Made by a program: the position numbers and the translations under genes
Part shown: positions 9,125 through 64,000 of the stretch, piece by piece
Position numbering within the stretch: position 1 is the stretch's first letter
Layout: each line of letters begins with the position of its first letter
The notes under the pieces: generated by a model
Databases searched by the model: none
Told to the model about the DNA's origin: nothing
Seen by the model: the letters and a program-made list of their open reading frames with translations, nothing else
DNA from: Shigella phage Sf14
Length of the DNA stretch: 64,000 nt
Direction: 5' to 3' (one strand)
Sequence record: MF327003

Positions 9125-11885
<2,761 letters not shown>

Positions 11886-34351: not shown

Positions 34352-35398
34352 ATGGAACAATACACCTTAACAAAGCTCCCAGAGAGCGTTACACACGTCT
34401 TTATTGACTCTGATAGCATTGCTTACAAAGGTGCTTGTGTAGTTGAAAAAGCAAAGTACAAGTATGTGAATAAAATCACTGCTGAAGAATCCGATGCTTT
34501 TGATAGTGCAAAACTGGCAGCACAATGGTTGTCTGACCAAAGAGTTTTAACTGAAGAGTTAGGACTTGACTTTGATGAAGATGAATGGGAAAGACAGACT
34601 TGGAAGGAAGCTAAAAGTGAAGCTGAAGCAATTATGGCTACACAGCAAGTTCTTCAGGAGTGGTTGAAAGTCGTTGGTAAAGAACGCAAATGGATGGGTT
34701 ACCTTACTGAGAAAGGTGTTCACAAACACAAGGATATCAAAGGTCTTGAACACCAATATCAAGGTAACAGAAAAGAAGCTGTAACACCTACACACCTAGT
34801 TGCTTGTCGTGAGTATCTTCTGTCACGACCAGAGTTTAAGCTCCTAAAAGGGGGCTTCGAAGCAGACTCTATCGTTATTGCAAAAGCTGAGAAGATGGGT
34901 AAAAAAGCTGCTCTGATGAGTATTGATAAAGACCTTCGTCAAGCTGAAGGAACTTACTGTATTGATATGACTTATGAGAAAGCTCCATTAATTTTCATTG
35001 CAGATAATAACGTTGGTGAGATTTGGGATTGCCCTATCAAATCTAAACCGAAAGCTAAGAAGACAGTCGGAGTGGGTTTTAAATTCCTCTGCTATCAAGC
35101 TGTAGCAGGTGATAATGCAGACAACTACTTCGGTTTAAAAGGTGCTGGTAAGGTTGCGGTGATGAATGCACTGGAAGGTAAGACTACCTATAAAGAGTGC
35201 TTAGATGCAATCTATGAACTTTATGCTAAGAAAGACTCTTACACTTATGAATCGTGGGATGGTCAGATTGTGACAAGAACTCCACTAGAACTAATGGAGC
35301 AGCACTTCTGGATTGCATACCAAGAAAGAAATTCTAAAGATGATTTCACTTTTGATAAGTACGGGTGGACACCAAATGCTAACTCAACAAACTCTTAA
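34352..35398 (+). CDS. 5'-3' exonuclease (FEN/RNase H-like)
   Basis: ATG 34352 with GGAGAG RBS after terminator; N-terminal acidic cluster VFIDSDSIAYK and H3TH-like GDNADNYFGLKGAG. Confidence 0.5.
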   Translation: MEQYTLTKLPESVTHVFIDSDSIAYKGACVVEKAKYKYVNKITAEESDAFDSAKLAAQWLSDQRVLTEELGLDFDEDEWERQTWKEAKSEAEAIMATQQVLQEWLKVVGKERKWMGYLTEKGVHKHKDIKGLEHQYQGNRKEAVTPTHLVACREYLLSRPEFKLLKGGFEADSIVIAKAEKMGKKAALMSIDKDLRQAEGTYCIDMTYEKAPLIFIADNNVGEIWDCPIKSKPKAKKTVGVGFKFLCYQAVAGDNADNYFGLKGAGKVAVMNALEGKTTYKECLDAIYELYAKKDSYTYESWDGQIVTRTPLELMEQHFWIAYQERNSKDDFTFDKYGWTPNANSTNS

Positions 35399-35867
35399 AG
35401 AATACCTACACTATGACCCCGAAACAGGGGTCTTTACTTGGCTTAAAAAGTCAGCTAAACGTACAAAGATTGGCTCTATAGCGGGTACGAATTTAAAAGG
35501 CTATATTAGAATCTACTTGTTTGGTAAAGGTTACTATGCACATTCACTAGCTGTACTTTATATGGAAGGTTATCTTCCTGAATGTGTTGACCACAAAAAT
35601 CATGTAACATTGGATAACCGTTGGACTAACCTAAGAGCTTGTACTCTTTCTGAAAACCAATGTAATAGGTTACTTAACAAGAATAATAAATCTGGTGTCA
35701 AAGGGGTGTACTTCCATAAAAAGTATCAAAAATGGTCTACACAAATCACTTTCAAAAAGAAAGTTTATTTCTTTGGCAATTATGACACTATTGAGGAAGC
35801 AGCAGAAGTTGTAAACAGAGAAAGGTTACGTTTACATAAAGAGTTTGCTAATAAAGGTGATAAATGA
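35376..35867 (+). CDS. HNH homing endonuclease-like protein with AP2-type DNA-binding domain
   Basis: HNH region CVDHKNHVTLDNRWTNLRACTLSEN then AP2-like KSGVKGVYFHKKYQKWSTQITFKKKVYFFGNYDTIEEAA; start overlaps exonuclease 3' end. Confidence 0.55.
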   Translation: MLTQQTLKEYLHYDPETGVFTWLKKSAKRTKIGSIAGTNLKGYIRIYLFGKGYYAHSLAVLYMEGYLPECVDHKNHVTLDNRWTNLRACTLSENQCNRLLNKNNKSGVKGVYFHKKYQKWSTQITFKKKVYFFGNYDTIEEAAEVVNRERLRLHKEFANKGDK

Positions 35868-36367
35868 TAAAAATTAAAGGTTTTGGCAATTGCCCTACTT
35901 ATGGTCACTGGATTTCACTGTGTGGTGAAGTTGACCCATCAAAATACTTTGGTTTTGTATATCTAGTCTACTGCAAAAAGACTGGTCAATACTATTTGGG
36001 AAAGAAACAATTTAATAACGTCACTAAGAGAAAGGTTGCTGGAAAGACCAGACGTAAAGTCGTGACAAAAGAAAGTGATTGGATGACTTATCAAACATCT
36101 TCTGAATACATTAAGAAGGATATTGAATCTTTTGGTGAAAAAGAGTTTGACTTCTACATCATCCAGACTTACTATACGCGAGGTGGCTTAGTTTATGGCG
36201 AAGCTAACCTACAACATAAGTTTGACGTCATGACAAAAAGGATTGACTCTAAGCTTCGACTCTTCTACAATGCGAACATTGCAGCAATCAAGTTTCTTAC
36301 AAAAGAGACTTATGATGAAGCTGAGAAGAGAATCACTAAAATCATGAAACTTAATGAGAGAGTTTAA
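35864..36367 (+). CDS. GIY-YIG domain protein
   Basis: GFVYLVYCKKTGQYYLGKK matches the GIY...YIG spacing. Confidence 0.4.
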   Translation: MIKIKGFGNCPTYGHWISLCGEVDPSKYFGFVYLVYCKKTGQYYLGKKQFNNVTKRKVAGKTRRKVVTKESDWMTYQTSSEYIKKDIESFGEKEFDFYIIQTYYTRGGLVYGEANLQHKFDVMTKRIDSKLRLFYNANIAAIKFLTKETYDEAEKRITKIMKLNERV

Positions 36368-38025: not shown

Positions 38026-40260
38026 ATGATTACTACTATTCGCAAATCAGACGGTACAATCGTACCATTCGAACCAGAGCGTTTAAATAAATGGGCTTCA
38101 TGGGCTGACAAGAGAGGAATTATCTGGTCAGAGGTTGTCATGGAAGCTATGAAGCGTGTCTATGAAGGTTGTACAACAAAAGAAATGCACCAAGCTATGA
38201 TTGACGTTTGTATTGATAAGCAAACTCAAGAGTACTCTGATATGGCTGGGAGACTACTTCTTGGCATTATCTACAAAGAAGCTTTTGGTGGATTTACAAA
38301 GGTTCCTCAGTTACTTCCATTTGTGATGAAGATGGAGCAGATGGGGCTTTGGGAACATATGGATTACACACCTGAAGAGATTGACTACTTACAAGGTCAC
38401 ATCGTACATTCAAAAGATATCTCTTATGGGTATGCAGTACTGAAGCAGTTCCGTGATAAGTATGGAATCCGTGACATTAAAAGTGGTAAGCTGTTTGAGT
38501 CTCCACAGTTTATGTTCATGGGTATGGCTATGAAAGCCTTTGAAAGACAGCCTAAACAGCGTCGTTTAGATGATGTTATTAAGCTCTACACATATCTATC
38601 TGACCTGAAGATTAATGCCCCTACACCGTATCTGAATGGTCTGAGAGCTACAAAATCTGGCTATGCTTCATGCTGCCTAATTAAAGCAAACGATACTGCT
38701 GAATCTCTTGGCATTGCTACAAAAGTAGCTTATGACATGACCACTAAGCAAGCAGGTATTGGTATGCTGATGGAGACCAGAACAATTGGTGATGGAATCC
38801 GACAAAACACTATTGAGCATATGGGAAAACTCCCTTATTATAAGCTTGTACGTGCTGCTGTAGAGGCTAATAAGCAGAAGAGTCGTGGTGGTTCAGCTAA
38901 TAACTTCTTCACTGCATTAGACCCACAGATTGAGGATTTGCTACGCTTGAAGCACCCTACAACGGTTCCTGCAAAGCGTATTAATGAAATGGATTACTCA
39001 TTTGGTGCAAATGATTACTTCTGGCAATGTGTACAGTACGATACAGATTGGTTGCTATTCTCTTACAAAGATGCACCAAGACTGTATGACATGTTCTACA
39101 CAGCAAGTGCTGATGAATTTGCTATGGCAGTAGGTCACGCAGTTCATACAGGTGTTAAACATAAACGTGTAAAGGCTCGTGAAGTTGCCAAGTTGTTTAT
39201 TCAACAACGTTATGCTACAGGACGTGTTTACCCGTTCTTTACTAACAACGCAAACTATCATACACCTTTCAAAGAGCCTTTGAAAATGTCAAACCTGTGT
39301 ATGGAGATTGTCTTACCAGTTCATGGTTTTGAGGATGAAAGAGACCTGTATAGCTACACAGCCAAGAAAGAAGACGGTGAAGTTGCTCTTTGCTTCCTAG
39401 CTAGTTTGGTTGCAGGGAGAATCACAGAAGATGAATACGCTGACGTTGCTTATTATGCTCTTGCAATGGTTGACTCCGTTATTGACCTTATGGATTATCC
39501 GTATCCGTCAATGCGTAACCATGTTCAGAAACGTCGTTCTGTTGGTATTGGTCTTACTAATGTGGCCCATTACCTTGCGAAGAACTATGTGAACTACTCA
39601 TCAAGGGCTGGTAAAACTAAACTTCATGAGTTGGCTGAGATGCACTCTTACTTCTTGCATGAAGCATCTTTAAGACTCGCAAAAGAGCGTGGTGTACCAG
39701 AGTACATGCAGTTTACTAAGTACCCTGACGGTTGGGTTCCACCAAAGACTGCTAACAAGAAAATTGATGAAAAGCACGATGCAAAACTTCGTTATGATTG
39801 GGATGACCTGTCACAGCGAATCAAGGAAAATGGAGGTATCCGTAACTCTGTGTTAGAGGCTTACATGCCTAATGAGAGTTCTTCTCTGGCAACTAACACG
39901 ACAAACGGCCTATACCCTATTCGTGACTTCATCTTAACTAAGAAGTCTGCAACTGGTAACGTTCTGTTTATTGTACCTGATTATGAAGAGTTGAAGTATG
40001 TATATGAAATTGCTTGGGATATTGACACATTTGATATGATTGATTGCTATGCAATTGTTCAAAAATTCACTGGTCAAGCTATCTCTTCAGATTTCTATGT
40101 TGACTACTCGAAGTCTAAGAAGGTATCATTAGAGCAAGCTTTGAAGTACATGATTTATGCAAACCTTGTTGGTTTGAAAACTATGTACTACCTGAACAGC
40201 CGTATCGGTGTTGGTAAATCAGCACTACAAGATGCCTACTGTGAGGGTTGCGGCGTTTAG
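38026..40260 (+). CDS. nrdA: ribonucleoside-diphosphate reductase large subunit (class I)
   Basis: 744 aa; NLCMEI active-site motif; followed by small-subunit and glutaredoxin-like genes. Confidence 0.85.
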   Translation: MITTIRKSDGTIVPFEPERLNKWASWADKRGIIWSEVVMEAMKRVYEGCTTKEMHQAMIDVCIDKQTQEYSDMAGRLLLGIIYKEAFGGFTKVPQLLPFVMKMEQMGLWEHMDYTPEEIDYLQGHIVHSKDISYGYAVLKQFRDKYGIRDIKSGKLFESPQFMFMGMAMKAFERQPKQRRLDDVIKLYTYLSDLKINAPTPYLNGLRATKSGYASCCLIKANDTAESLGIATKVAYDMTTKQAGIGMLMETRTIGDGIRQNTIEHMGKLPYYKLVRAAVEANKQKSRGGSANNFFTALDPQIEDLLRLKHPTTVPAKRINEMDYSFGANDYFWQCVQYDTDWLLFSYKDAPRLYDMFYTASADEFAMAVGHAVHTGVKHKRVKAREVAKLFIQQRYATGRVYPFFTNNANYHTPFKEPLKMSNLCMEIVLPVHGFEDERDLYSYTAKKEDGEVALCFLASLVAGRITEDEYADVAYYALAMVDSVIDLMDYPYPSMRNHVQKRRSVGIGLTNVAHYLAKNYVNYSSRAGKTKLHELAEMHSYFLHEASLRLAKERGVPEYMQFTKYPDGWVPPKTANKKIDEKHDAKLRYDWDDLSQRIKENGGIRNSVLEAYMPNESSSLATNTTNGLYPIRDFILTKKSATGNVLFIVPDYEELKYVYEIAWDIDTFDMIDCYAIVQKFTGQAISSDFYVDYSKSKKVSLEQALKYMIYANLVGLKTMYYLNSRIGVGKSALQDAYCEGCGV

Positions 40261-40273
40261 TTTGAATAACTAT

Positions 40274-40300
40274 GAGGGTCGTAAAAGACCCTCTAAAATT
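40274..40300 (+). terminator. hairpin/weak terminator after nrdA
   Basis: GAGGGTC-GTAAAA-GACCCTC followed by TAAAATT. Confidence 0.4.
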
Positions 40301-40315
40301 AACTTGGAGAAAGGT

Positions 40316-40591
40316 ATGCTAGATTTAATTCGCAATGCGAGAATACGTAGTAAAGATAACTCACTATATTTATTTTATATTCCAAGACGGTCTTTGTATT
40401 ATATTGCAGACTTAGACTTAAAAGTTAAGATGCCAGATGGTTCTTGGAAAGAACATATACGATATGTTGATTGTTTTAATCCAAAGCAAACATATGCAAG
40501 GCCACTTGATATGTTCAACAAGGACAAATGGGTTGTTATGACAACAACTGAAGCCAGAAACTTTCTAGATACAGGAATCTTACCAGAATGA
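40316..40591 (+). CDS. small protein inserted between nrdA and nrdB, unknown
   Basis: ATG 40316 with GGAGAAAGG RBS downstream of hairpin; 91 aa. Confidence 0.35.
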   Translation: MLDLIRNARIRSKDNSLYLFYIPRRSLYYIADLDLKVKMPDGSWKEHIRYVDCFNPKQTYARPLDMFNKDKWVVMTTTEARNFLDTGILPE

Positions 40592-41661
40592 TTAATCCAC
40601 ATCCAATTTTCTTAGGCGGTGAACGAAAAACTTTCGATTCACTGAATAAACACTATCCAAAAATCTTTGAACTGTATAAGCAGCAGAAAGCACAAGACTG
40701 GTCTGAAGATGAGTTCCCATTTGAACAGTCACGTTTAGACTTTGAGAGTGTCCCTCAGTCAATGTCTGGTGTAATGCTTGAGATTCTGAAATGGCAATGG
40801 GAAGCAGATACACAGGTTGCTAAGAGTTTAGCTTTTGCATTTGCACCATTCATCTCTGATGATATCTATGCAACTGCTATCATGAAGCAATCAGAAATTG
40901 AGAACCTTCATGCACTAACTTATTCAGAGATTGTTCGTCAGTGTATCAAGAACCCTGAAACAATCCTTGATGAGATTAACCAGAACGCTGCTGTACAGGA
41001 CAGATTGAAGACTGTGAACAGAGCACTGGCAGAATTACTTGACGAAGGTATTAACTATCGTTTAAGCTATGTTTGTCAAGAGCTAATGGAGAAAGACCCT
41101 TTACACTTCCACAAAGTAATCTTAAAAGGTCTCTTTGCAGTAACAGCACTTGAGGGTATTTCCTTCATGGCATCCTTTGCATGTACCTTTGCACTTGATG
41201 CACAAGATAAATTCCAAGGGATTGCACAAGCAGTACAGAAAATTATGCTTGACGAAATCATTCACACAAAGATTGATATCGAAGCATTAAAAGAAACTTT
41301 GAAAGATGAAGAGTGGCAAGAAGCTTTCCGTCAAGTACTCCCAGAAATTAAAGTAATTCTGGATGAGGTAGTTGAAAGTGAAGAGAAATGGTCTTATTAT
41401 ATTTTCTCTGAAGGACGTGCTGTTGTAGGTTTAAATACAAAACTTCTTCACGAATGGGTTTACTACAACGCTGCTCCATTGTATGATATGTTTGGTATTC
41501 CAAGAGACTTCGTAGCTCCTAAAGAACCACCTTTGAAATATATGATTAAGAAGATGGAAATTGATAAAGAGCAAAACGCTAACCAAGAACAACAAAATGG
41601 TGCGTACCTTTTGAATACCGTTGTTGATGATTTAAATTCAGGATTTTTAGAGGTTCCTTAA
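40588..41661 (+). CDS. nrdB: ribonucleoside-diphosphate reductase small subunit (class I)
   Basis: 357 aa helical ferritin-like protein with conserved Glu/His/Tyr pattern, adjacent to nrdA. Confidence 0.8.
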   Translation: MINPHPIFLGGERKTFDSLNKHYPKIFELYKQQKAQDWSEDEFPFEQSRLDFESVPQSMSGVMLEILKWQWEADTQVAKSLAFAFAPFISDDIYATAIMKQSEIENLHALTYSEIVRQCIKNPETILDEINQNAAVQDRLKTVNRALAELLDEGINYRLSYVCQELMEKDPLHFHKVILKGLFAVTALEGISFMASFACTFALDAQDKFQGIAQAVQKIMLDEIIHTKIDIEALKETLKDEEWQEAFRQVLPEIKVILDEVVESEEKWSYYIFSEGRAVVGLNTKLLHEWVYYNAAPLYDMFGIPRDFVAPKEPPLKYMIKKMEIDKEQNANQEQQNGAYLLNTVVDDLNSGFLEVP

Positions 41662-46158: not shown

Positions 46159-46470
46159 ATGGAAAAGATTTATAACACTCGTAAAATTCAGATTGCAATC
46201 CTGTGCCAGTTTATGGCTGATAAACACAATTCACACTATTGTGGTACAGGTTTCCTTATGCAAGGTAGTGGCTACATTAGTTTCAAAGAAGCTGTGAAGA
46301 TGTATAATGAGCACCCTGAAGATGACAAAGAGTTGAAACAACTGAAGCTTACTTATGACAAGAAGCGTAAGAAAATTGTATGCTTGAACAACCTTATCAA
46401 GCCAACTGAAAACGTTTATGATTCAATTGGTGAAGAAGGTTTCTTAAAAGTCTTGAAAATAGCTCAGTAA
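46159..46470 (+). CDS. hypothetical protein
   Basis: 103 aa ORF followed by terminator. Confidence 0.3.
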   Translation: MEKIYNTRKIQIAILCQFMADKHNSHYCGTGFLMQGSGYISFKEAVKMYNEHPEDDKELKQLKLTYDKKRKKIVCLNNLIKPTENVYDSIGEEGFLKVLKIAQ

Positions 46471-46522: not shown

Positions 46523-47038
46523 ATGTACCATTCAAATCTGAAACGTGCTGCTGCAATGTCTGTTCTTCGTCTTGATTTTGATGAGCGTCAAGAGTTCATC
46601 GAGTCACATCAGTATGACCCTTCAAATTCTAATCACATGGTGCTTTGGAATCGTGGTAAGTTCCGTGATAGTGCCTTGTTCCAGTACTACCCTCATTACA
46701 CTATTGACAACCTCTATGAATACTGCGTTGTCAAGAACACTATTGCAACCCTTAATAAGCTTTGTAGATATTCTGGAAAGAAAGCTTTCACATTAGGCCA
46801 CCATAAGCCCGTGACAAAAGGTGGAGAGCACCATTGCTCGAACTGGTTTATCCAGACTCAAGAAGATAACCAGAAGCAGGGAGAGAAGCTTCCAGAAGCC
46901 CCTAAGATGACTTGGGAGGAACAGAAAGCATATCTCAAAAATAATATGCCACCAATGCTTGACAGGGAATATGCAGTTCTGGCAATATCACTCTTGTTGA
47001 AGCTTGAGACAGTTTATGAGGCAACTTATCATGGCTAG
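46523..47038 (+). CDS. HNH endonuclease-like protein
   Basis: GHHKPVTKGGEHHCSNW...N resembles HNH core (HH...GG...N). Confidence 0.4.
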   Translation: MYHSNLKRAAAMSVLRLDFDERQEFIESHQYDPSNSNHMVLWNRGKFRDSALFQYYPHYTIDNLYEYCVVKNTIATLNKLCRYSGKKAFTLGHHKPVTKGGEHHCSNWFIQTQEDNQKQGEKLPEAPKMTWEEQKAYLKNNMPPMLDREYAVLAISLLLKLETVYEATYHG

Positions 47039-59740: not shown

Positions 59741-59819
59741 TTTACATGGGGTTTAAAATCTAGTATCTTAAGCCCCAGATAAAGAGCTTTACAAACAATC
59801 CTAAACTGGAGAATCTAAA
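59741..59819 (+). promoter_or_regulatory. type 2 promoter/leader cassette (TTTACA-17-TATCTT with embedded hairpin, then conserved leader)
   Basis: TTTACATGGGGTTTAAAATCTAGTATCTTAAGCCCCAGATAAAGAGCTTTACAAACAATCCTAAACTGGAGAATCTAAAA; repeated at 4 other sites. Confidence 0.45.
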
Positions 59820-60116
59820 ATGTTTATTGCCGCAAACGTTAGAACTAAATTAAGCCAGCTATTAAGTAATATCCAATTCATTGAATCTATGCGCCGTACA
59901 TCTGAAGCCGTAGAGTGGTATCATGGAAAGATTAACAAAAAGGAAGTAATAATTTGTGTATGGAACTTTTGTAAAGAATACAAAAAACCATTGCTTCAGG
60001 TTGATATCTATGATAACACTAATAAGTCATCGATTAAGACCACTAGAGATATGGTTGATTCATATGAAATTAGTCACACTGGTAAACTATTCCACAAAGG
60101 TAAAAACAAATGTTAA
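59820..60116 (+). CDS. early small protein
   Basis: 98 aa behind type 2 cassette. Confidence 0.4.
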   Translation: MFIAANVRTKLSQLLSNIQFIESMRRTSEAVEWYHGKINKKEVIICVWNFCKEYKKPLLQVDIYDNTNKSSIKTTRDMVDSYEISHTGKLFHKGKNKC

Positions 60117-60457
60117 TCACATACGTTGCAATTTTTATCTCTATTGTGGCGCTCTATAAAGCCTTACAAGCGCACAGTATAGCTAATAAGGCACTTACAA
60201 GGGATTTAAAAATAAACCTTGTACGGGGCTTTTTAGAGCGTTTAAGCTTAGAACAATTGAAACGCTTAGAGATGAGCTTTCGATTCAAAGCAGAAACATA
60301 CCGGATTGATAACATCCTAGACGGTGATTTTAAATTAATCAGTGATTATGACATACTTCTTGAGTCAATTCAAGATATAAACCTGAAAGATTATTATATC
60401 GTGATAGCGCAAGAAATTAATAAAAAAGAGCTTGCAATGCAGAATCAAAACAAGTAA
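60110..60457 (+). CDS. early small membrane protein
   Basis: N-terminal TM helix (ITYVAIFISIVALY); 115 aa. Confidence 0.35.
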   Translation: MLITYVAIFISIVALYKALQAHSIANKALTRDLKINLVRGFLERLSLEQLKRLEMSFRFKAETYRIDNILDGDFKLISDYDILLESIQDINLKDYYIVIAQEINKKELAMQNQNK

Positions 60458-60460
60458 AGT
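60432..60460 (+). promoter_or_regulatory. early-type promoter TTGCAA-17-TAAAGT (type 1)
   Basis: Followed by ATTCATCAACGGGGCAAGATAGAAGCCCCAACAATCCTAAACTGGAGAATCTGAAAATG. Confidence 0.55.
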
Positions 60461-60516
60461 ATTCATCAACGGGGCAAGATAGAAGCCCCAACAATCCTAA
60501 ACTGGAGAATCTGAAA

Positions 60517-60789
60517 ATGTATACTACTAATGACGGTCGAACTTTGAACGTAACTTTAAAACACTATATAGACGGTGTATTAAACTTTGAAGAGTTAAGA
60601 GCAGAACAGCACCTATTAGATTGGCAAGTAGCAGGTTTACAAAAAACCGCCACAGGATATGGAAAGAAAATTCCTACATCTTGGAAAGTTCGATACCTTG
60701 GAAAGTTACGCAGAATTTATCAAGATGTTTATAGTAATAGCGGTGTAAGTTACATTATTGTTAGCGGTAAAAAATTGTATTTAGTCTAA
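60517..60789 (+). CDS. early small protein
   Basis: 90 aa behind type 1 cassette. Confidence 0.4.
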   Translation: MYTTNDGRTLNVTLKHYIDGVLNFEELRAEQHLLDWQVAGLQKTATGYGKKIPTSWKVRYLGKLRRIYQDVYSNSGVSYIIVSGKKLYLV

Positions 60790-60797
60790 TAAATTGC

Positions 60798-60879
60798 TTT
60801 ACATGGGGTTTATAGTTAGATAAGATAAGCCCCAGATAAAGAGATTTATCTAAAACTAACCTAAACTGGAGTATCAAAA
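60798..60879 (+). promoter_or_regulatory. type 2 promoter/leader cassette (variant)
   Basis: TTTACATGGGGTTTATAGTTAGATAAGATAAGCCCCAGATAAAGAG...CCTAAACTGGAGTATCAAAAATG. Confidence 0.4.
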
Positions 60880-61287
60880 ATGACTAATGCTAATCACAAA
60901 GAAGTTGCAATTTTGAAAGCACGTTTGACCATTAACCGCATCAACATTGTAACATCAGCAGCACCAGACGAAACTCTGCATAATATCATCGGTAAAATTC
61001 AGGGCGCAGTAGTAGACACAAAACAGCTTAAAGAATCCTTGCAAGATGTAGCAGCAGGGGCTATAATTGACGGTGCTCAATATGAGATGAAGGAAATGCT
61101 GTCAAAGTCAAAAGTAATGAATAAAGAACTTGACTTGAAAATGTTTCGATTTGCTGTTAAAGTGTGGCTATGTGTTGATTTTGATGCAAACTTTGCAATT
61201 GCTGATTTCTTTGCAACATGGTTACAGCGTAACTTACCGGTTGAAGTCTTCCGTGAAATCTGCGATGCAATTTATTCAGAGATTTGA
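60880..61287 (+). CDS. early protein
   Basis: 135 aa. Confidence 0.4.
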   Translation: MTNANHKEVAILKARLTINRINIVTSAAPDETLHNIIGKIQGAVVDTKQLKESLQDVAAGAIIDGAQYEMKEMLSKSKVMNKELDLKMFRFAVKVWLCVDFDANFAIADFFATWLQRNLPVEVFREICDAIYSEI

Positions 61288-61316
61288 TTGACATTGCAAA
61301 AGCATAGTAGTAGAGT
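61288..61316 (+). promoter_or_regulatory. early-type promoter TTGACA-17-TAGAGT (type 1)
   Basis: Consensus -35; followed by the same leader and hairpin as at 60461. Confidence 0.6.
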
Positions 61317-61372
61317 ACTCATCAACGGGGCAAGATAGAAGCCCCAACAATCCTAAACTGGAGAATCTGAAA

Positions 61373-61621
61373 ATGTTTAATATGTTGAATATCCCTGACA
61401 CTTGCCGACTCTTAACACAATTTGATAACCTTGGCAAGCCGTTTTTATATCATATGCCAGATAACACTGCAAAAACTTACAGTTACATTGTAAACCGTTT
61501 TACGGCTTATGGTTCAAAGTATGGCTATAATGTCAAGACTCAAAAAGTGACTTTGTTCACAAGTATTGAAGAGTTACCAACTGTTGCCGTTAAACTAATC
61601 TTTACAAAGAAAACTAAATAA
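61373..61621 (+). CDS. early small protein
   Basis: 82 aa. Confidence 0.4.
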   Translation: MFNMLNIPDTCRLLTQFDNLGKPFLYHMPDNTAKTYSYIVNRFTAYGSKYGYNVKTQKVTLFTSIEELPTVAVKLIFTKKTK

Positions 61622-61626
61622 AGTCC

Positions 61627-61705
61627 TTTACATGGGGTTTAAAAGCTAGTATCTTAAGCCCCAGATAAAGAGCTTTACCAACAATCCTAAACTGGAGAAT
61701 CTAAA
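61627..61705 (+). promoter_or_regulatory. type 2 promoter/leader cassette
   Basis: TTTACATGGGGTTTAAAAGCTAGTATCTTAAGCCCCAGATAAAGAGCTTTACCAACAATCCTAAACTGGAGAATCTAAAATG. Confidence 0.45.
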
Positions 61706-62263
61706 ATGAAATGCTTCCACGGTACTACACAAGAAAACTTTGTAAACCTTATTAATGGCGGTGATAAACCATCAGGAGTCTGGAATTGCTCTGATATGGA
61801 TGGATGTTTTTATGTCTACCCTGTTAGCAAGTTCTATGATGTAGAAAATCTGGATGACGAACAAATCATAGATGAAGGTATTAAAAACGCGCTTGATAGC
61901 GCAAGCATTACAGCAGCCTATCAAATGAAGTCACAAAAGCTTGTTATCTTGGAACTGGATATTCCAGAAGATGATTTACAAGATGACTGGAGCTGTGAGA
62001 ACATGAGCGACGTAGCAAGCTTTACAGAATATTTCGATAAAGAATGGATTAAAAAGGTTTACACAACTGAATTTAATGCTATGTATGCGCCTTTCTTTGT
62101 CCCTAACCTGAATAATAGGAACTTGGGTTATATACCAGATGAATTACGCAACATTGCGGCAATAGTCCAACGTAGTGATGAGATGAGCAATGTATATTGT
62201 GATATCTTTGACACAATGCAATTCAACGTAACAGAAACGGCTATAAACGACTTAACAGCATAA
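61706..62263 (+). CDS. early protein, unknown
   Basis: 185 aa, acidic. Confidence 0.4.
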   Translation: MKCFHGTTQENFVNLINGGDKPSGVWNCSDMDGCFYVYPVSKFYDVENLDDEQIIDEGIKNALDSASITAAYQMKSQKLVILELDIPEDDLQDDWSCENMSDVASFTEYFDKEWIKKVYTTEFNAMYAPFFVPNLNNRNLGYIPDELRNIAAIVQRSDEMSNVYCDIFDTMQFNVTETAINDLTA

Positions 62264-62326
62264 ACGATAGAATCATACCAGTTCACTAGAAAAGCCCCGC
62301 ATAGGGGCTTACAAGAGGCTTAAAAC

Positions 62327-62557
62327 ATGCTTACTACAATCTATCTTATTCTATCTATCTGCAATGGTTCACAGTGTGACTTTAAAGGTTTAGAAGAGTT
62401 TACAGGTAGCGAAAATAATGCTATTGTTGCTTGTCAGATAGCAAGGCAAGATTACCCTGCATCAGATGATATCCAATGTTACTATAAATCAGAAGATGAT
62501 TATGGCATTTACTTTGACAGTGTGAATGGTGATTATGAAATTCTTATAGAAAAGTAG
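62327..62557 (+). CDS. early small protein
   Basis: 76 aa; preceded by hairpin AAAGCCCC-GCATA-GGGGCTT and AGAGG RBS. Confidence 0.35.
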   Translation: MLTTIYLILSICNGSQCDFKGLEEFTGSENNAIVACQIARQDYPASDDIQCYYKSEDDYGIYFDSVNGDYEILIEK

Positions 62558-62586
62558 TTGACACTGAAAACGCAAACAAGTAAAGT
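62558..62586 (+). promoter_or_regulatory. early-type promoter TTGACA-17-TAAAGT (type 1)
   Basis: Followed by ATTCATCAACGGGAAGGAAACTTCCCC...CCTAAACTGGAGAATCAAAAATG. Confidence 0.6.
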
Positions 62587-62646
62587 ATTCATCAACGGGA
62601 AGGAAACTTCCCCACTAAACAAAATTCCTAAACTGGAGAATCAAAA

Positions 62647-62868
62647 ATGTTGCAAGTTCTTAACGTAAAAACCATTGATTTTAAATTCTCAAATGTTCGT
62701 CGTACCTATTTACAGCCATTTAATAACCCTGTTAGAATTCCCAACGATGACGCTAAAAAGTTGATTGATGAAATTCTAGCTAATGGCGGTTATCTGGCTA
62801 GTCATAAGCAGTATAATGATGAGGCTGGAAGCCTGATAAATGAGTTTACATATTATTACTACAAATAA
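62647..62868 (+). CDS. early small protein
   Basis: 73 aa. Confidence 0.4.
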   Translation: MLQVLNVKTIDFKFSNVRRTYLQPFNNPVRIPNDDAKKLIDEILANGGYLASHKQYNDEAGSLINEFTYYYYK

Positions 62869-62880
62869 CTAATAAAGTCC

Positions 62881-62959
62881 TTTACATGGGGTTTATAGTT
62901 AGATAAGATAAGCCCCAGATAAAGAGCTTTACCAACAATCCTAAACTGGAGAATCTAAA
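62881..62959 (+). promoter_or_regulatory. type 2 promoter/leader cassette
   Basis: Same element as at 60798 and 61627. Confidence 0.45.
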
Positions 62960-63157
62960 ATGTTATCACTGATGCAAAAACTTTCTACCTTGTGGTGTTT
63001 AAAAGGTGTAGAGTGTAACCTTAACATGGAAGGTTCAAAGATAGACCTAAAAATAGTATACAATGGAGAAATACTATTCTCACAGAATAGCAGTCATCCA
63101 CACTTCAAAGATAATGCAATTATGGCCGTGAATAATCTGATGGATAGAATTTATTAA
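62960..63157 (+). CDS. early small protein
   Basis: 65 aa. Confidence 0.35.
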   Translation: MLSLMQKLSTLWCLKGVECNLNMEGSKIDLKIVYNGEILFSQNSSHPHFKDNAIMAVNNLMDRIY

Positions 63158-63162
63158 AGTGC

Positions 63163-63242
63163 TTTACATGGGGTTTAAAAGCTAGTATCTTAAGCCCCAG
63201 ATAAAGAGCTTTACCAACAATCCTAAACTGGAGAATCTGAAA
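63163..63242 (+). promoter_or_regulatory. type 2 promoter/leader cassette
   Basis: TTTACATGGGGTTTAAAAGCTAGTATCTTAAGCCCCAGATAAAGAGCTTTACCAACAATCCTAAACTGGAGAATCTGAAAATG. Confidence 0.45.
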
Positions 63243-63584
63243 ATGGCCTATGTAACAATTATCACCGATAAAGAAAATTCGTCATGGTCTACCCAAGTTA
63301 ACGACAAAATGAAACCTATGCAGTGTCTCAAGTACTTTGAGCAATGGAACAGGGGAGAAGATGTAAGCCCCTTTCAAGTGATGCAGATTGTACATGTTGA
63401 CAATGAAGGGAATAAAACTACCCTTAACACTGAATACTATGCTACACGTTTCGAAACTCGCAAATCAGCTATGCAGGAGTTAAGAGAAAAGGGATATAGT
63501 CACATTGCCGCGCTCATTTGGTCTGATTTGCTTAAAAAACAGTCATTAACCTATGTTAAGCCAGAAAAAATCTTTATAAGCTAA
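63243..63584 (+). CDS. early protein, copy 1 of tandemly duplicated gene
   Basis: 113 aa; identical to product of 63659..64000. Confidence 0.45.
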   Translation: MAYVTIITDKENSSWSTQVNDKMKPMQCLKYFEQWNRGEDVSPFQVMQIVHVDNEGNKTTLNTEYYATRFETRKSAMQELREKGYSHIAALIWSDLLKKQSLTYVKPEKIFIS

Positions 63585-63658
63585 TCAACAACTTATAAAA
63601 ATCTTTTGAAAAACAGATAAAGAGCTTTACCAACAATCCTAAACTGGAGAATCTGAAA

Positions 63659-64000
63659 ATGGCCTATGTAACAATTATCACCGATAAAGAAAATTCGTCA
63701 TGGTCTACCCAAGTTAACGACAAAATGAAACCTATGCAGTGTCTCAAGTACTTTGAGCAATGGAACAGGGGAGAAGATGTAAGCCCCTTTCAAGTGATGC
63801 AGATTGTACATGTTGACAATGAAGGGAATAAAACTACCCTTAACACTGAATACTATGCTACACGTTTCGAAACTCGCAAATCAGCTATGCAGGAGTTAAG
63901 AGAAAAGGGATATAGTCACATTGCCGCGCTCATTTGGTCTGATTTGCTTAAAAAACAGTCATTAACCTATGTTAAGCCAGAAAAAATCTTTATAAGCTAA
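63659..64000 (+). CDS. early protein, copy 2 of tandemly duplicated gene
   Basis: Translation identical to 63243..63584; stop codon is the last 3 bases of the window. Confidence 0.45.
   Translation: MAYVTIITDKENSSWSTQVNDKMKPMQCLKYFEQWNRGEDVSPFQVMQIVHVDNEGNKTTLNTEYYATRFETRKSAMQELREKGYSHIAALIWSDLLKKQSLTYVKPEKIFIS

Follow-up and report, generated by a model that had tools for sequence, protein, structure and literature searches.

Homing endonucleases that combine an HNH and an AP2 domain form a family that is credited to Magnani et al. 2004 in PMC10448857. The relatives of this family in ICP1, termed 'IPA-HNH', have an N-terminal HNH_3 domain and a C-terminal AP2 domain, are free-standing between conserved genes, and lie at a boundary of raised divergence and recombination. 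Another known case is Felix O1, in which a 2010 report counted six HNH copies (PMC3185647). The subject here is a 64,000-nucleotide (nt) stretch of Shigella phage Sf14 (sequence record MF327003), which will be called the window. In it, a gene of the same build, the HNH-AP2 gene, stands between a 5'-3' exonuclease gene and a GIY-YIG nuclease gene. It is like the ICP1 relatives in its domains, in its free-standing position and in the divergence around it, and the window genome has one copy of it as against the six of Felix O1.

The window belongs to the genus Mooglevirus (Ounavirinae, Felix O1-like). A 4.7-kb query around the locus found matches in 257 phage records, all of them Felix O1-like, and its best match (98.8%) was Shigella phage Sf16 (Mooglevirus, species Mooglevirus Sf14). 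By local BLAST, the window and Sf16 are 99.2% identical over positions 1-49,876 and collinear up to ~59.8 kb. Because of this collinearity and identity, the GenBank annotation of Sf16 (MF158043) can be transferred almost base for base. The product of gp89, labelled 'HNH homing endonuclease', is 100% identical in protein to the window open reading frame (ORF) at 35376-35867, while that of gp90, labelled 'GIY-YIG nuclease', is 99.4% identical to the one at 35864-36367. Position, overlaps and gene order are alike with no substantive difference, and the window and Sf16 represent sister isolates of one species.

Since the Sf16 labels, the Felix O1 copies and the HNH+AP2 family are all on record, the finding is already known. 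A sequence-only reading of the window had listed four endonuclease-like genes as insertions, and this interpretation is right for one gene of the four. What is added here is the exact empty site of the HNH-AP2 gene, its putative co-conversion tracts, the multiplicity of its alleles, and the fixed status of the GIY-YIG gene and of two further genes that encode proteins of 171 and 91 amino acids (aa). All four ORFs were confirmed at their coordinates on the + strand (Table 1).

The HNH-AP2 gene and its empty site

The HNH-AP2 gene has the domains of its family, is polymorphic among close relatives, has an exact empty junction and several alleles, is bordered by divergent flanks and is under purifying selection. 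The polymorphism is seen in genomes 97-98% identical to the window, which often cover just 89% of the 4.7-kb query; alignment showed that exactly the HNH-AP2 ORF is missing from them. The distance between fixed points in the exonuclease and GIY-YIG genes was taken in 30 Ounavirinae loci from GenBank and IMG/VR. Half of these loci (15/30) are empty, with exactly 276 nt between the anchors in each. Allele A, the type found in the window, occupies six of the 30 loci with 761 nt, and allele B or other alleles occupy nine, with 767-770 nt. At least three protein-distinct alleles are found at this one site. Coverage of positions 35290-36060 reaches 80% or more, which needs an HNH gene there, in 90 of 285 phage-database records, and the gene is missing from about 195 of the 285, or about two thirds of the relatives; it must be held against these record counts that they contain duplicate GenBank/RefSeq entries of one phage. 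Allele A itself, at 80% or higher amino-acid identity, is present in 19 records only.

The junction is equally well defined. Where the HNH gene is missing, the exonuclease gene ends in a four-codon overlap with the GIY-YIG start (ATGAATGAAGATTAA), and the exonuclease C-terminus reads ...KKYNWEP.MNED*. In filled genomes it reads ...DKYGWTPNANSTNS (…WTPNANSTNS); here, the 5' end of the HNH cassette encodes the last ~9 exonuclease codons, and an ATGA junction leads to the GIY-YIG gene. Thus, the exonuclease and GIY-YIG genes are left undamaged, as the cassette brings a new exonuclease C-terminus and the ATGA junction with it. The arrangement described from the letters alone, an HNH-AP2 ORF that overlaps the 3' end of the exonuclease gene and is followed by a GIY-YIG-like ORF, was confirmed: the overlap is 23 nt with the exonuclease (stop at 35398) and 4 nt (ATGA) with the GIY-YIG ORF.

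The back-to-back domain calls of that reading were likewise borne out when a hidden Markov model search was run. In the HNH-AP2 ORF, Pfam HNH_3 is matched at aa 53-95 (E 9.6e-12, 44.8 bits against a cutoff of 24.8) and Pfam AP2 at aa 106-144, in the C-terminal part (E 8.7e-5); the next ORF matches SegE_GIY-YIG (E 2.7e-27). The HNH-AP2 ORF also matches PHROG_99, 'HNH endonuclease', at 2.4e-70. Its segment VDHKNHVTLDNRWTNLR aligns with the active-site region of I-HmuI (PDB 1u3e), the HNH nicking endonuclease of a Bacillus phage SPO1 intron, and includes the catalytic DH...N...N residues. The two proteins are alike in this HNH_3-type DH..N..N motif; I-HmuI differs in being intron-encoded and in having another C-terminal DNA-binding region, and the match is a weak one (E 0.1). 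The ratio of nonsynonymous to synonymous divergence (dN/dS) between allele-A copies is ~0.04; the gene is intact and under purifying selection. An intein or intron context was considered for it and rejected, as the gene has a start of its own and forms a separate ORF, in another frame. An upstream TTG at 35313 was also rejected as the start codon, the Sf16 annotation and all alleles favouring the ATG at 35376.

The DNA on both sides of the gene is set apart from the rest of the backbone. When the window is compared with the empty relative Sf13, 45 of 234 aligned flank nt are mismatched (19%), against 41 of 3,982 elsewhere (1.0%). The downstream flank haplotype is common to the window and the other allele-A genomes. 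Nuclease genes have been located at the boundaries of genetic exchange (PMC10448857), and the flank pattern of the window fits this. A scan of flank positions for association with filled or empty state, over 30 related sequences, gave a single linked substitution beyond the junction, at position 35359, which is A in the 15 empty loci and G in the 15 filled ones. As this position alone is fully linked to the presence of the HNH gene, the recognition site is not predictable from the sequence.

Phage Henu12 presents the same site with another allele. Its backbone is 99.7% identical to the window upstream and 97.3% downstream; in between, at ~34800-36190, identity falls to 85-87%, giving a replaced tract of ~1.4 kb. 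The HNH gene within it is a Moogle-type allele, with 96.6% identity to that of Moogle. From these identities, Henu12 is read as an independent event at the junction of the exonuclease and GIY-YIG genes.

Table 1. Positions of the genes, flanks and hairpins discussed in the text, in window coordinates
Feature	Coordinates	Strand	Remarks
HNH_3 + AP2 free-standing homing-endonuclease gene (putative), allele A	35376..35867	+	Probable mobile cassette; adds 485 nt compared with empty genomes
5'-3' exonuclease gene (PIN/FEN-like)	34352..35398	+	PHROG_107 exonuclease, 1.7e-63; equals Sf16 gp88 exodeoxyribonuclease
Upstream divergent flank relative to Sf13 (putative co-conversion tract)	35317..35375	+	Holds linked position 35359
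Downstream divergent flank (putative co-conversion tract)	35862..36031	+	First ~170 nt of the GIY-YIG gene
33-nt nucleotide-invariant block	35409..35441	+	Encodes HYDPETGVFTW; hairpin GACCCC-GAAACA-GGGGTC at 35415-35432
SegE-type GIY-YIG nuclease-only gene	35864..36367	+	Fixed, single-copy, in all Ounavirinae; 167 aa
171-aa ORF with HNH-like (H-N-N) beta-beta-alpha motif, aa 89-119	46523..47038	+	PHROG_3500, full length, 3e-93
91-aa conserved ORF, predicted SH3/Tudor-like beta-barrel	40316..40591	+	Between nrdA (38026-40260) and nrdB (40588-41661)
Conserved hairpin GAGGGTC-GTAAAA-GACCCTC	40274..40293	+	Directly after the nrdA stop (TAG 40258-40260), upstream of the 91-aa ORF ribosome-binding site

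Origin of the HNH-AP2 gene

It is highly probable that the locus is made up of one mobile element, the HNH-AP2 free-standing homing endonuclease, and three resident genes. The ORF would have been wedged in where the end of the exonuclease gene and the beginning of the GIY-YIG gene overlap by 4 codons. If it works as characterised free-standing phage endonucleases do, the enzyme would act during mixed infection, cutting or nicking the intact exonuclease/GIY-YIG junction of an HNH-less Ounavirinae genome present in the same cell. The putative empty target is roughly TTTAAGAAATATAATTGG|GAGCC..ATGAATGAAG. Repair by recombination from the HNH-bearing genome would then insert the 485-nt cassette together with flanking DNA, and in the lineage of the window ~60 nt upstream and ~170 nt downstream may have been copied along. 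The cassette, with its own replacement exonuclease C-terminus and the ATGA stop/start coupling that it keeps, would leave the host genes intact.

Several points weigh against this account. The AP2 match of allele A scores 23.2 bits, under the Pfam gathering score of 33.3, and for this reason the domain was looked for in further alleles. The four that were examined all have it in the same place, and in a paralogue the match exceeds the gathering score with 47.5 bits; a C-terminal AP2 domain is therefore well founded for the family and marginal on the sequence of allele A alone. It is also to be considered that we infer that the protein is an active endonuclease, that it cleaves DNA, where its target site lies and which way the transfer went. 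A further point is time. Between Mooglevirus and Felixounavirus, the synonymous divergence (dS) of allele A is 1.2-1.4, like the 1.3-1.8 of the backbone, and because of this match allele A may have co-diverged with the phages for long. The acquisition is not demonstrably recent in the lineage of the window. Lastly, two of the empty loci (L013 and L018) have a 'filled-type' haplotype farther upstream, which is as compatible with loss or recombination as with gain.

These observations would suit another history, in which the exonuclease/GIY-YIG junction held the HNH-AP2 gene from ancient times and lost it repeatedly by deletion, so that the polymorphism reflects decay and not invasion. The equal dS of allele A and backbone, and the filled-type haplotype retained in the two empty loci, speak for it, and so does the lack of a high-identity donor besides Sf16: the nearest non-Sf16 match to the window cassette is 84%, near the inter-genus level of the backbone. 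As the donor is at best of this kind, no claim of recent cross-genus transfer is made. Such a history is nevertheless rather improbable. All 15 of 15 empty loci have one exact junction with a functional stop/start overlap and a different exonuclease C-terminus, and separate deletions would not restore this so precisely. In Henu12, an allele was swapped within a near-identical backbone, and the gene is strongly purifying-selected and not decaying. The sequence-only reading had held that such genes mark recent mobile-element activity; at the HNH-AP2 site the polymorphism, the alleles and the flanks uphold mobility, whereas the dS and the 84% donor do not uphold 'recent'.

The 5' region of the gene contains a peculiar block. 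Its 33 nt, CACTATGACCCCGAAACAGGGGTCTTTAC(T/G)TGG, are identical, synonymous positions included, in 15 of 15 HNH-AP2 genes at the site. An exact 26-mer core and surrounding bases are also identical in a paralogue elsewhere, whose protein is otherwise very different. The block was noted in the window and also in L083, L086 and L091. The hairpin within the block has a 6-bp GC-rich stem and was flagged as terminator-like. The RNA fold of 35355-35450 has an energy of -19.1 kcal/mol (z -2.0), and the sequence 3' of the hairpin is predicted to pair with the ribosome-binding region. The block could limit or regulate expression, or it could be a hotspot of gene conversion that is peculiar to HNH-AP2 elements.

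In one 84,419-bp Ounavirinae genome from IMG/VR (L014), the HNH allele has a 1-nt deletion within the otherwise constant hairpin block (CTATGA-CCCGAAAC). It would frameshift the first 14 HNH codons; the copy is decaying, or else the sequence was read wrongly.

The conserved block also enters into the question of whether the HNH-AP2 protein is selfish at all. It may instead have been co-opted, as an AP2-mediated transcription factor or as a packaging-associated HNH protein. The strong purifying selection, the translational embedding of the gene in the exonuclease-GIY-YIG operon, and a nucleotide-invariant 5' element common to paralogues would all be in keeping with such a role. This is very improbable, as the gene is missing from about two thirds of close relatives, some of them >97% identical, and alternative alleles at one site with divergent flanks are hallmarks of homing and not of housekeeping.

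For the engineering of therapeutic Felix O1-like or Mooglevirus phages, the exonuclease/GIY-YIG junction offers a natural tolerated insertion site and, at the same time, a predictable recombination hotspot.

The GIY-YIG gene beside the exonuclease

The gene that follows the HNH-AP2 ORF behaves differently. Its product matches Pfam SegE_GIY-YIG (PF19835) over aa 22-139, with the E-value given above, and PHROG_447 at 1.6e-47. By tBLASTn, the gene was found in ~295 records at 60% or higher identity, in one place each and always adjoining the exonuclease; the number of records is the same as that for the 91-aa ORF. It is present in 29 of 29 complete Ounavirinae loci. Its dN/dS lies at 0.03-0.08 with synonymous sites saturated, and between genera its protein is 88% identical, more than MazG (76%) or the neighbouring 76-aa ORF (44%). 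The description of the four genes as 'insertions' was held up to synteny and holds for the HNH-AP2 gene only; the other three are single-copy in every relative.

Residues G30, F31, Y33, Y44, G46, E113 and N136 are invariant in 13 diverse GIY-YIG homologues, and no residue could be assigned as the canonical catalytic Arg. Sequence searches of the PDB with the GIY-YIG protein, single or as a 13-member profile, did not reach I-TevI or other GIY-YIG nucleases. The matches that they returned, a TRP channel kinase and ribosomal eS1, were judged to be due to chance. C-terminal NUMOD domains are typical of GIY-YIG homing endonucleases (PMC1564403). In the window protein, no DNA-binding module (NUMOD or helix-turn-helix) was found by Pfam, PHROG or NCBIfam, and 28 residues follow the catalytic domain.

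Homologues outside the Ounavirinae give further context. The roseophage DSS3_VP1 (Naomviridae) has a GIY-YIG homologue of 38% identity which overlaps the end of a 5'-3' exonuclease gene, and that exonuclease is distantly similar to the exonuclease of the window. In cyanomyoviruses, the homologues lie near nrdA/nrdB, are near-universal and are labelled 'NAD synthetase'. In Stenotrophomonas phage Moby, the homologue, noted as SegD-like, is surrounded by structural genes.

The label 'NAD synthetase' is carried by PHROG_447 and by many RefSeq proteins of this family (homologues include L092 3941-4381 and L093 3938-4462), in which the sole domain found is the SegE-type GIY-YIG. On this domain content, the label appears wrong.

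The GIY-YIG protein is here read as a fixed nuclease and a resident partner of the exonuclease, not as an insertion. It is like T4 SegE and the other Seg enzymes in that its GIY-YIG catalytic domain falls in the SegE Pfam family. It is unlike these homing enzymes in that it has no DNA-binding domain, is fixed, single-copy and strongly conserved, and is paired with an exonuclease across phage families. Alternatively, it may be an active Seg-type homing endonuclease at fixation, in which case the HNH-AP2 and GIY-YIG genes would be two stacked selfish elements, a view implied by the sequence-only reading. The strong SegE_GIY-YIG match and the kept catalytic residues would suit this, and the SegD-like Moby homologue among structural genes suggests that some members of the family may move. 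This alternative is unlikely, and less likely than a resident partner, because of the constraint on the protein and its want of a DNA-binding domain such as homing enzymes typically have (NUMOD, PMC1564403). The gene occurs as one copy in the same place in the ~295 records, none being without it. Its dN/dS and its conservation above that of its neighbours stand against the decay expected of a fixed selfish endonuclease, and the exonuclease pairing is kept in another phage family.

As to what such a resident partner may do, a tentative possibility is that a homing-endonuclease domain was domesticated and serves the exonuclease. For example, it might nick host or replicating DNA and so give entry points for nucleotide scavenging or recombination. 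T4 endonuclease II is a likeness for such a nicking role. The HNH-AP2 gene would then parasitise the junction of an essential gene pair. The practical value of the locus is modest; the pairing of exonuclease and GIY-YIG across phage families is the only lead of some interest and might repay experiments.

The 171-aa and 91-aa ORFs and the wider region

Both remaining genes lie downstream, among genes of nucleotide metabolism. The order begins with the exonuclease, HNH and GIY-YIG genes, a small ORF, a MazG-like pyrophosphatase gene, two small ORFs and nrdA. After nrdA come the 91-aa ORF, nrdB, glutaredoxin, nrdD, nrdG and small ORFs, and the last part consists of the 171-aa ORF and the genes for PRPP synthetase and a phosphoribosyltransferase. 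At the sites of the GIY-YIG, 171-aa and 91-aa genes, identical gene content was found in all relatives (~295, 427 and 295 records, respectively), which contradicts the view of them as insertions. Domain content (GIY-YIG or HNH-like), or a map position at nrdA/nrdB, does not by itself prove recent insertion.

The 171-aa ORF had been put forward as HNH-like and as an insertion. It gave no match to Pfam. The family phrog_2214, 'HNH endonuclease', is matched weakly (2.3e-5), with 11 of 12 family members of the 171-aa protein matching it and the best at 3.5e-6; Pfam HNH is matched by one member (0.0085), and the HNH region of the NCBIfam IscB model is matched by the 171-aa ORF at 5e-4. In the family alignment, H93, N107, D115 and N116 are invariant, with the pattern FTLGHHKPVTKGGEHHCSNWFIQTQEDNQKQG. 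In an AlphaFold2 model (predicted local distance difference test, pLDDT, 71.5), aa 89-119 form a beta-beta-alpha element. By Foldseek, the top matches of this model are nearly all HNH domains, the best E-value being a non-significant 0.35. These weak and consistent signals make the term 'HNH-like' plausible, though unproven. Its status as an insertion fell away: the gene was found in 427 records at 429 places, in Ounavirinae, Erwinia phages and coliphages with ~150 kb genomes, and on this distribution it is a fixed lineage gene.

A likeness of aa 11-53 (window 46553-46681, LDFDERQEFIESHQYDPSNSNHMVL) to a domain helix of staphylococcal protein A is probably a matter of chance, since the E-value of 1.8e-10 is a sum over repeats that an engineered PDB target has in tandem, and the per-domain values are 1-9. 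In Sf16, the label 'putative HNH endonuclease' stands not on the 171-aa ORF but on a DUF7390 ORF of 103 aa (window 46159-46470). No HNH signal was found in that ORF; the HNH-like motif is in the next one. A metagenomic protein of 259 aa (P0014) contains a DUF7390 Pfam domain and also matches the 171-aa protein from end to end. This may reflect a link between the two families or read-through of a stop codon.

The 91-aa ORF was singled out for its place between nrdA and nrdB, where T4 carries the homing endonuclease gene mobE (PMC2790892). Its likeness to mobE is confined to this map position, and it differs in that the 91-aa protein has no HNH or nuclease motif. The position stood, and the nuclease did not. 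No match to nuclease families was found in Pfam, PHROG or NCBIfam, and the protein model is a confident small SH3/Tudor-like barrel without a nuclease fold. The gene is present in all relatives, in 295 records with one place each, and adjoins nrdB where annotated features are listed. It is a fixed lineage gene and, as modelled, not a nuclease. The intergenic region between nrdA and this ORF is more conserved than the ORF itself, and because of this gene callers extend the homologues upstream as FSFNNYEGRKRPSK.

At the far end of the window, from 59800 to 64000, collinearity with Sf16 is lost and the region differs between isolates. It holds repeats of ~95 nt at 60788-60886, 61612-61712, 62863-62964 and 63155-63245. 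These match several places in the small-ORF region of Sf16 (L077 ~9913-10006, 10370-10479 and 11332-11422), some of which fall between annotated genes.

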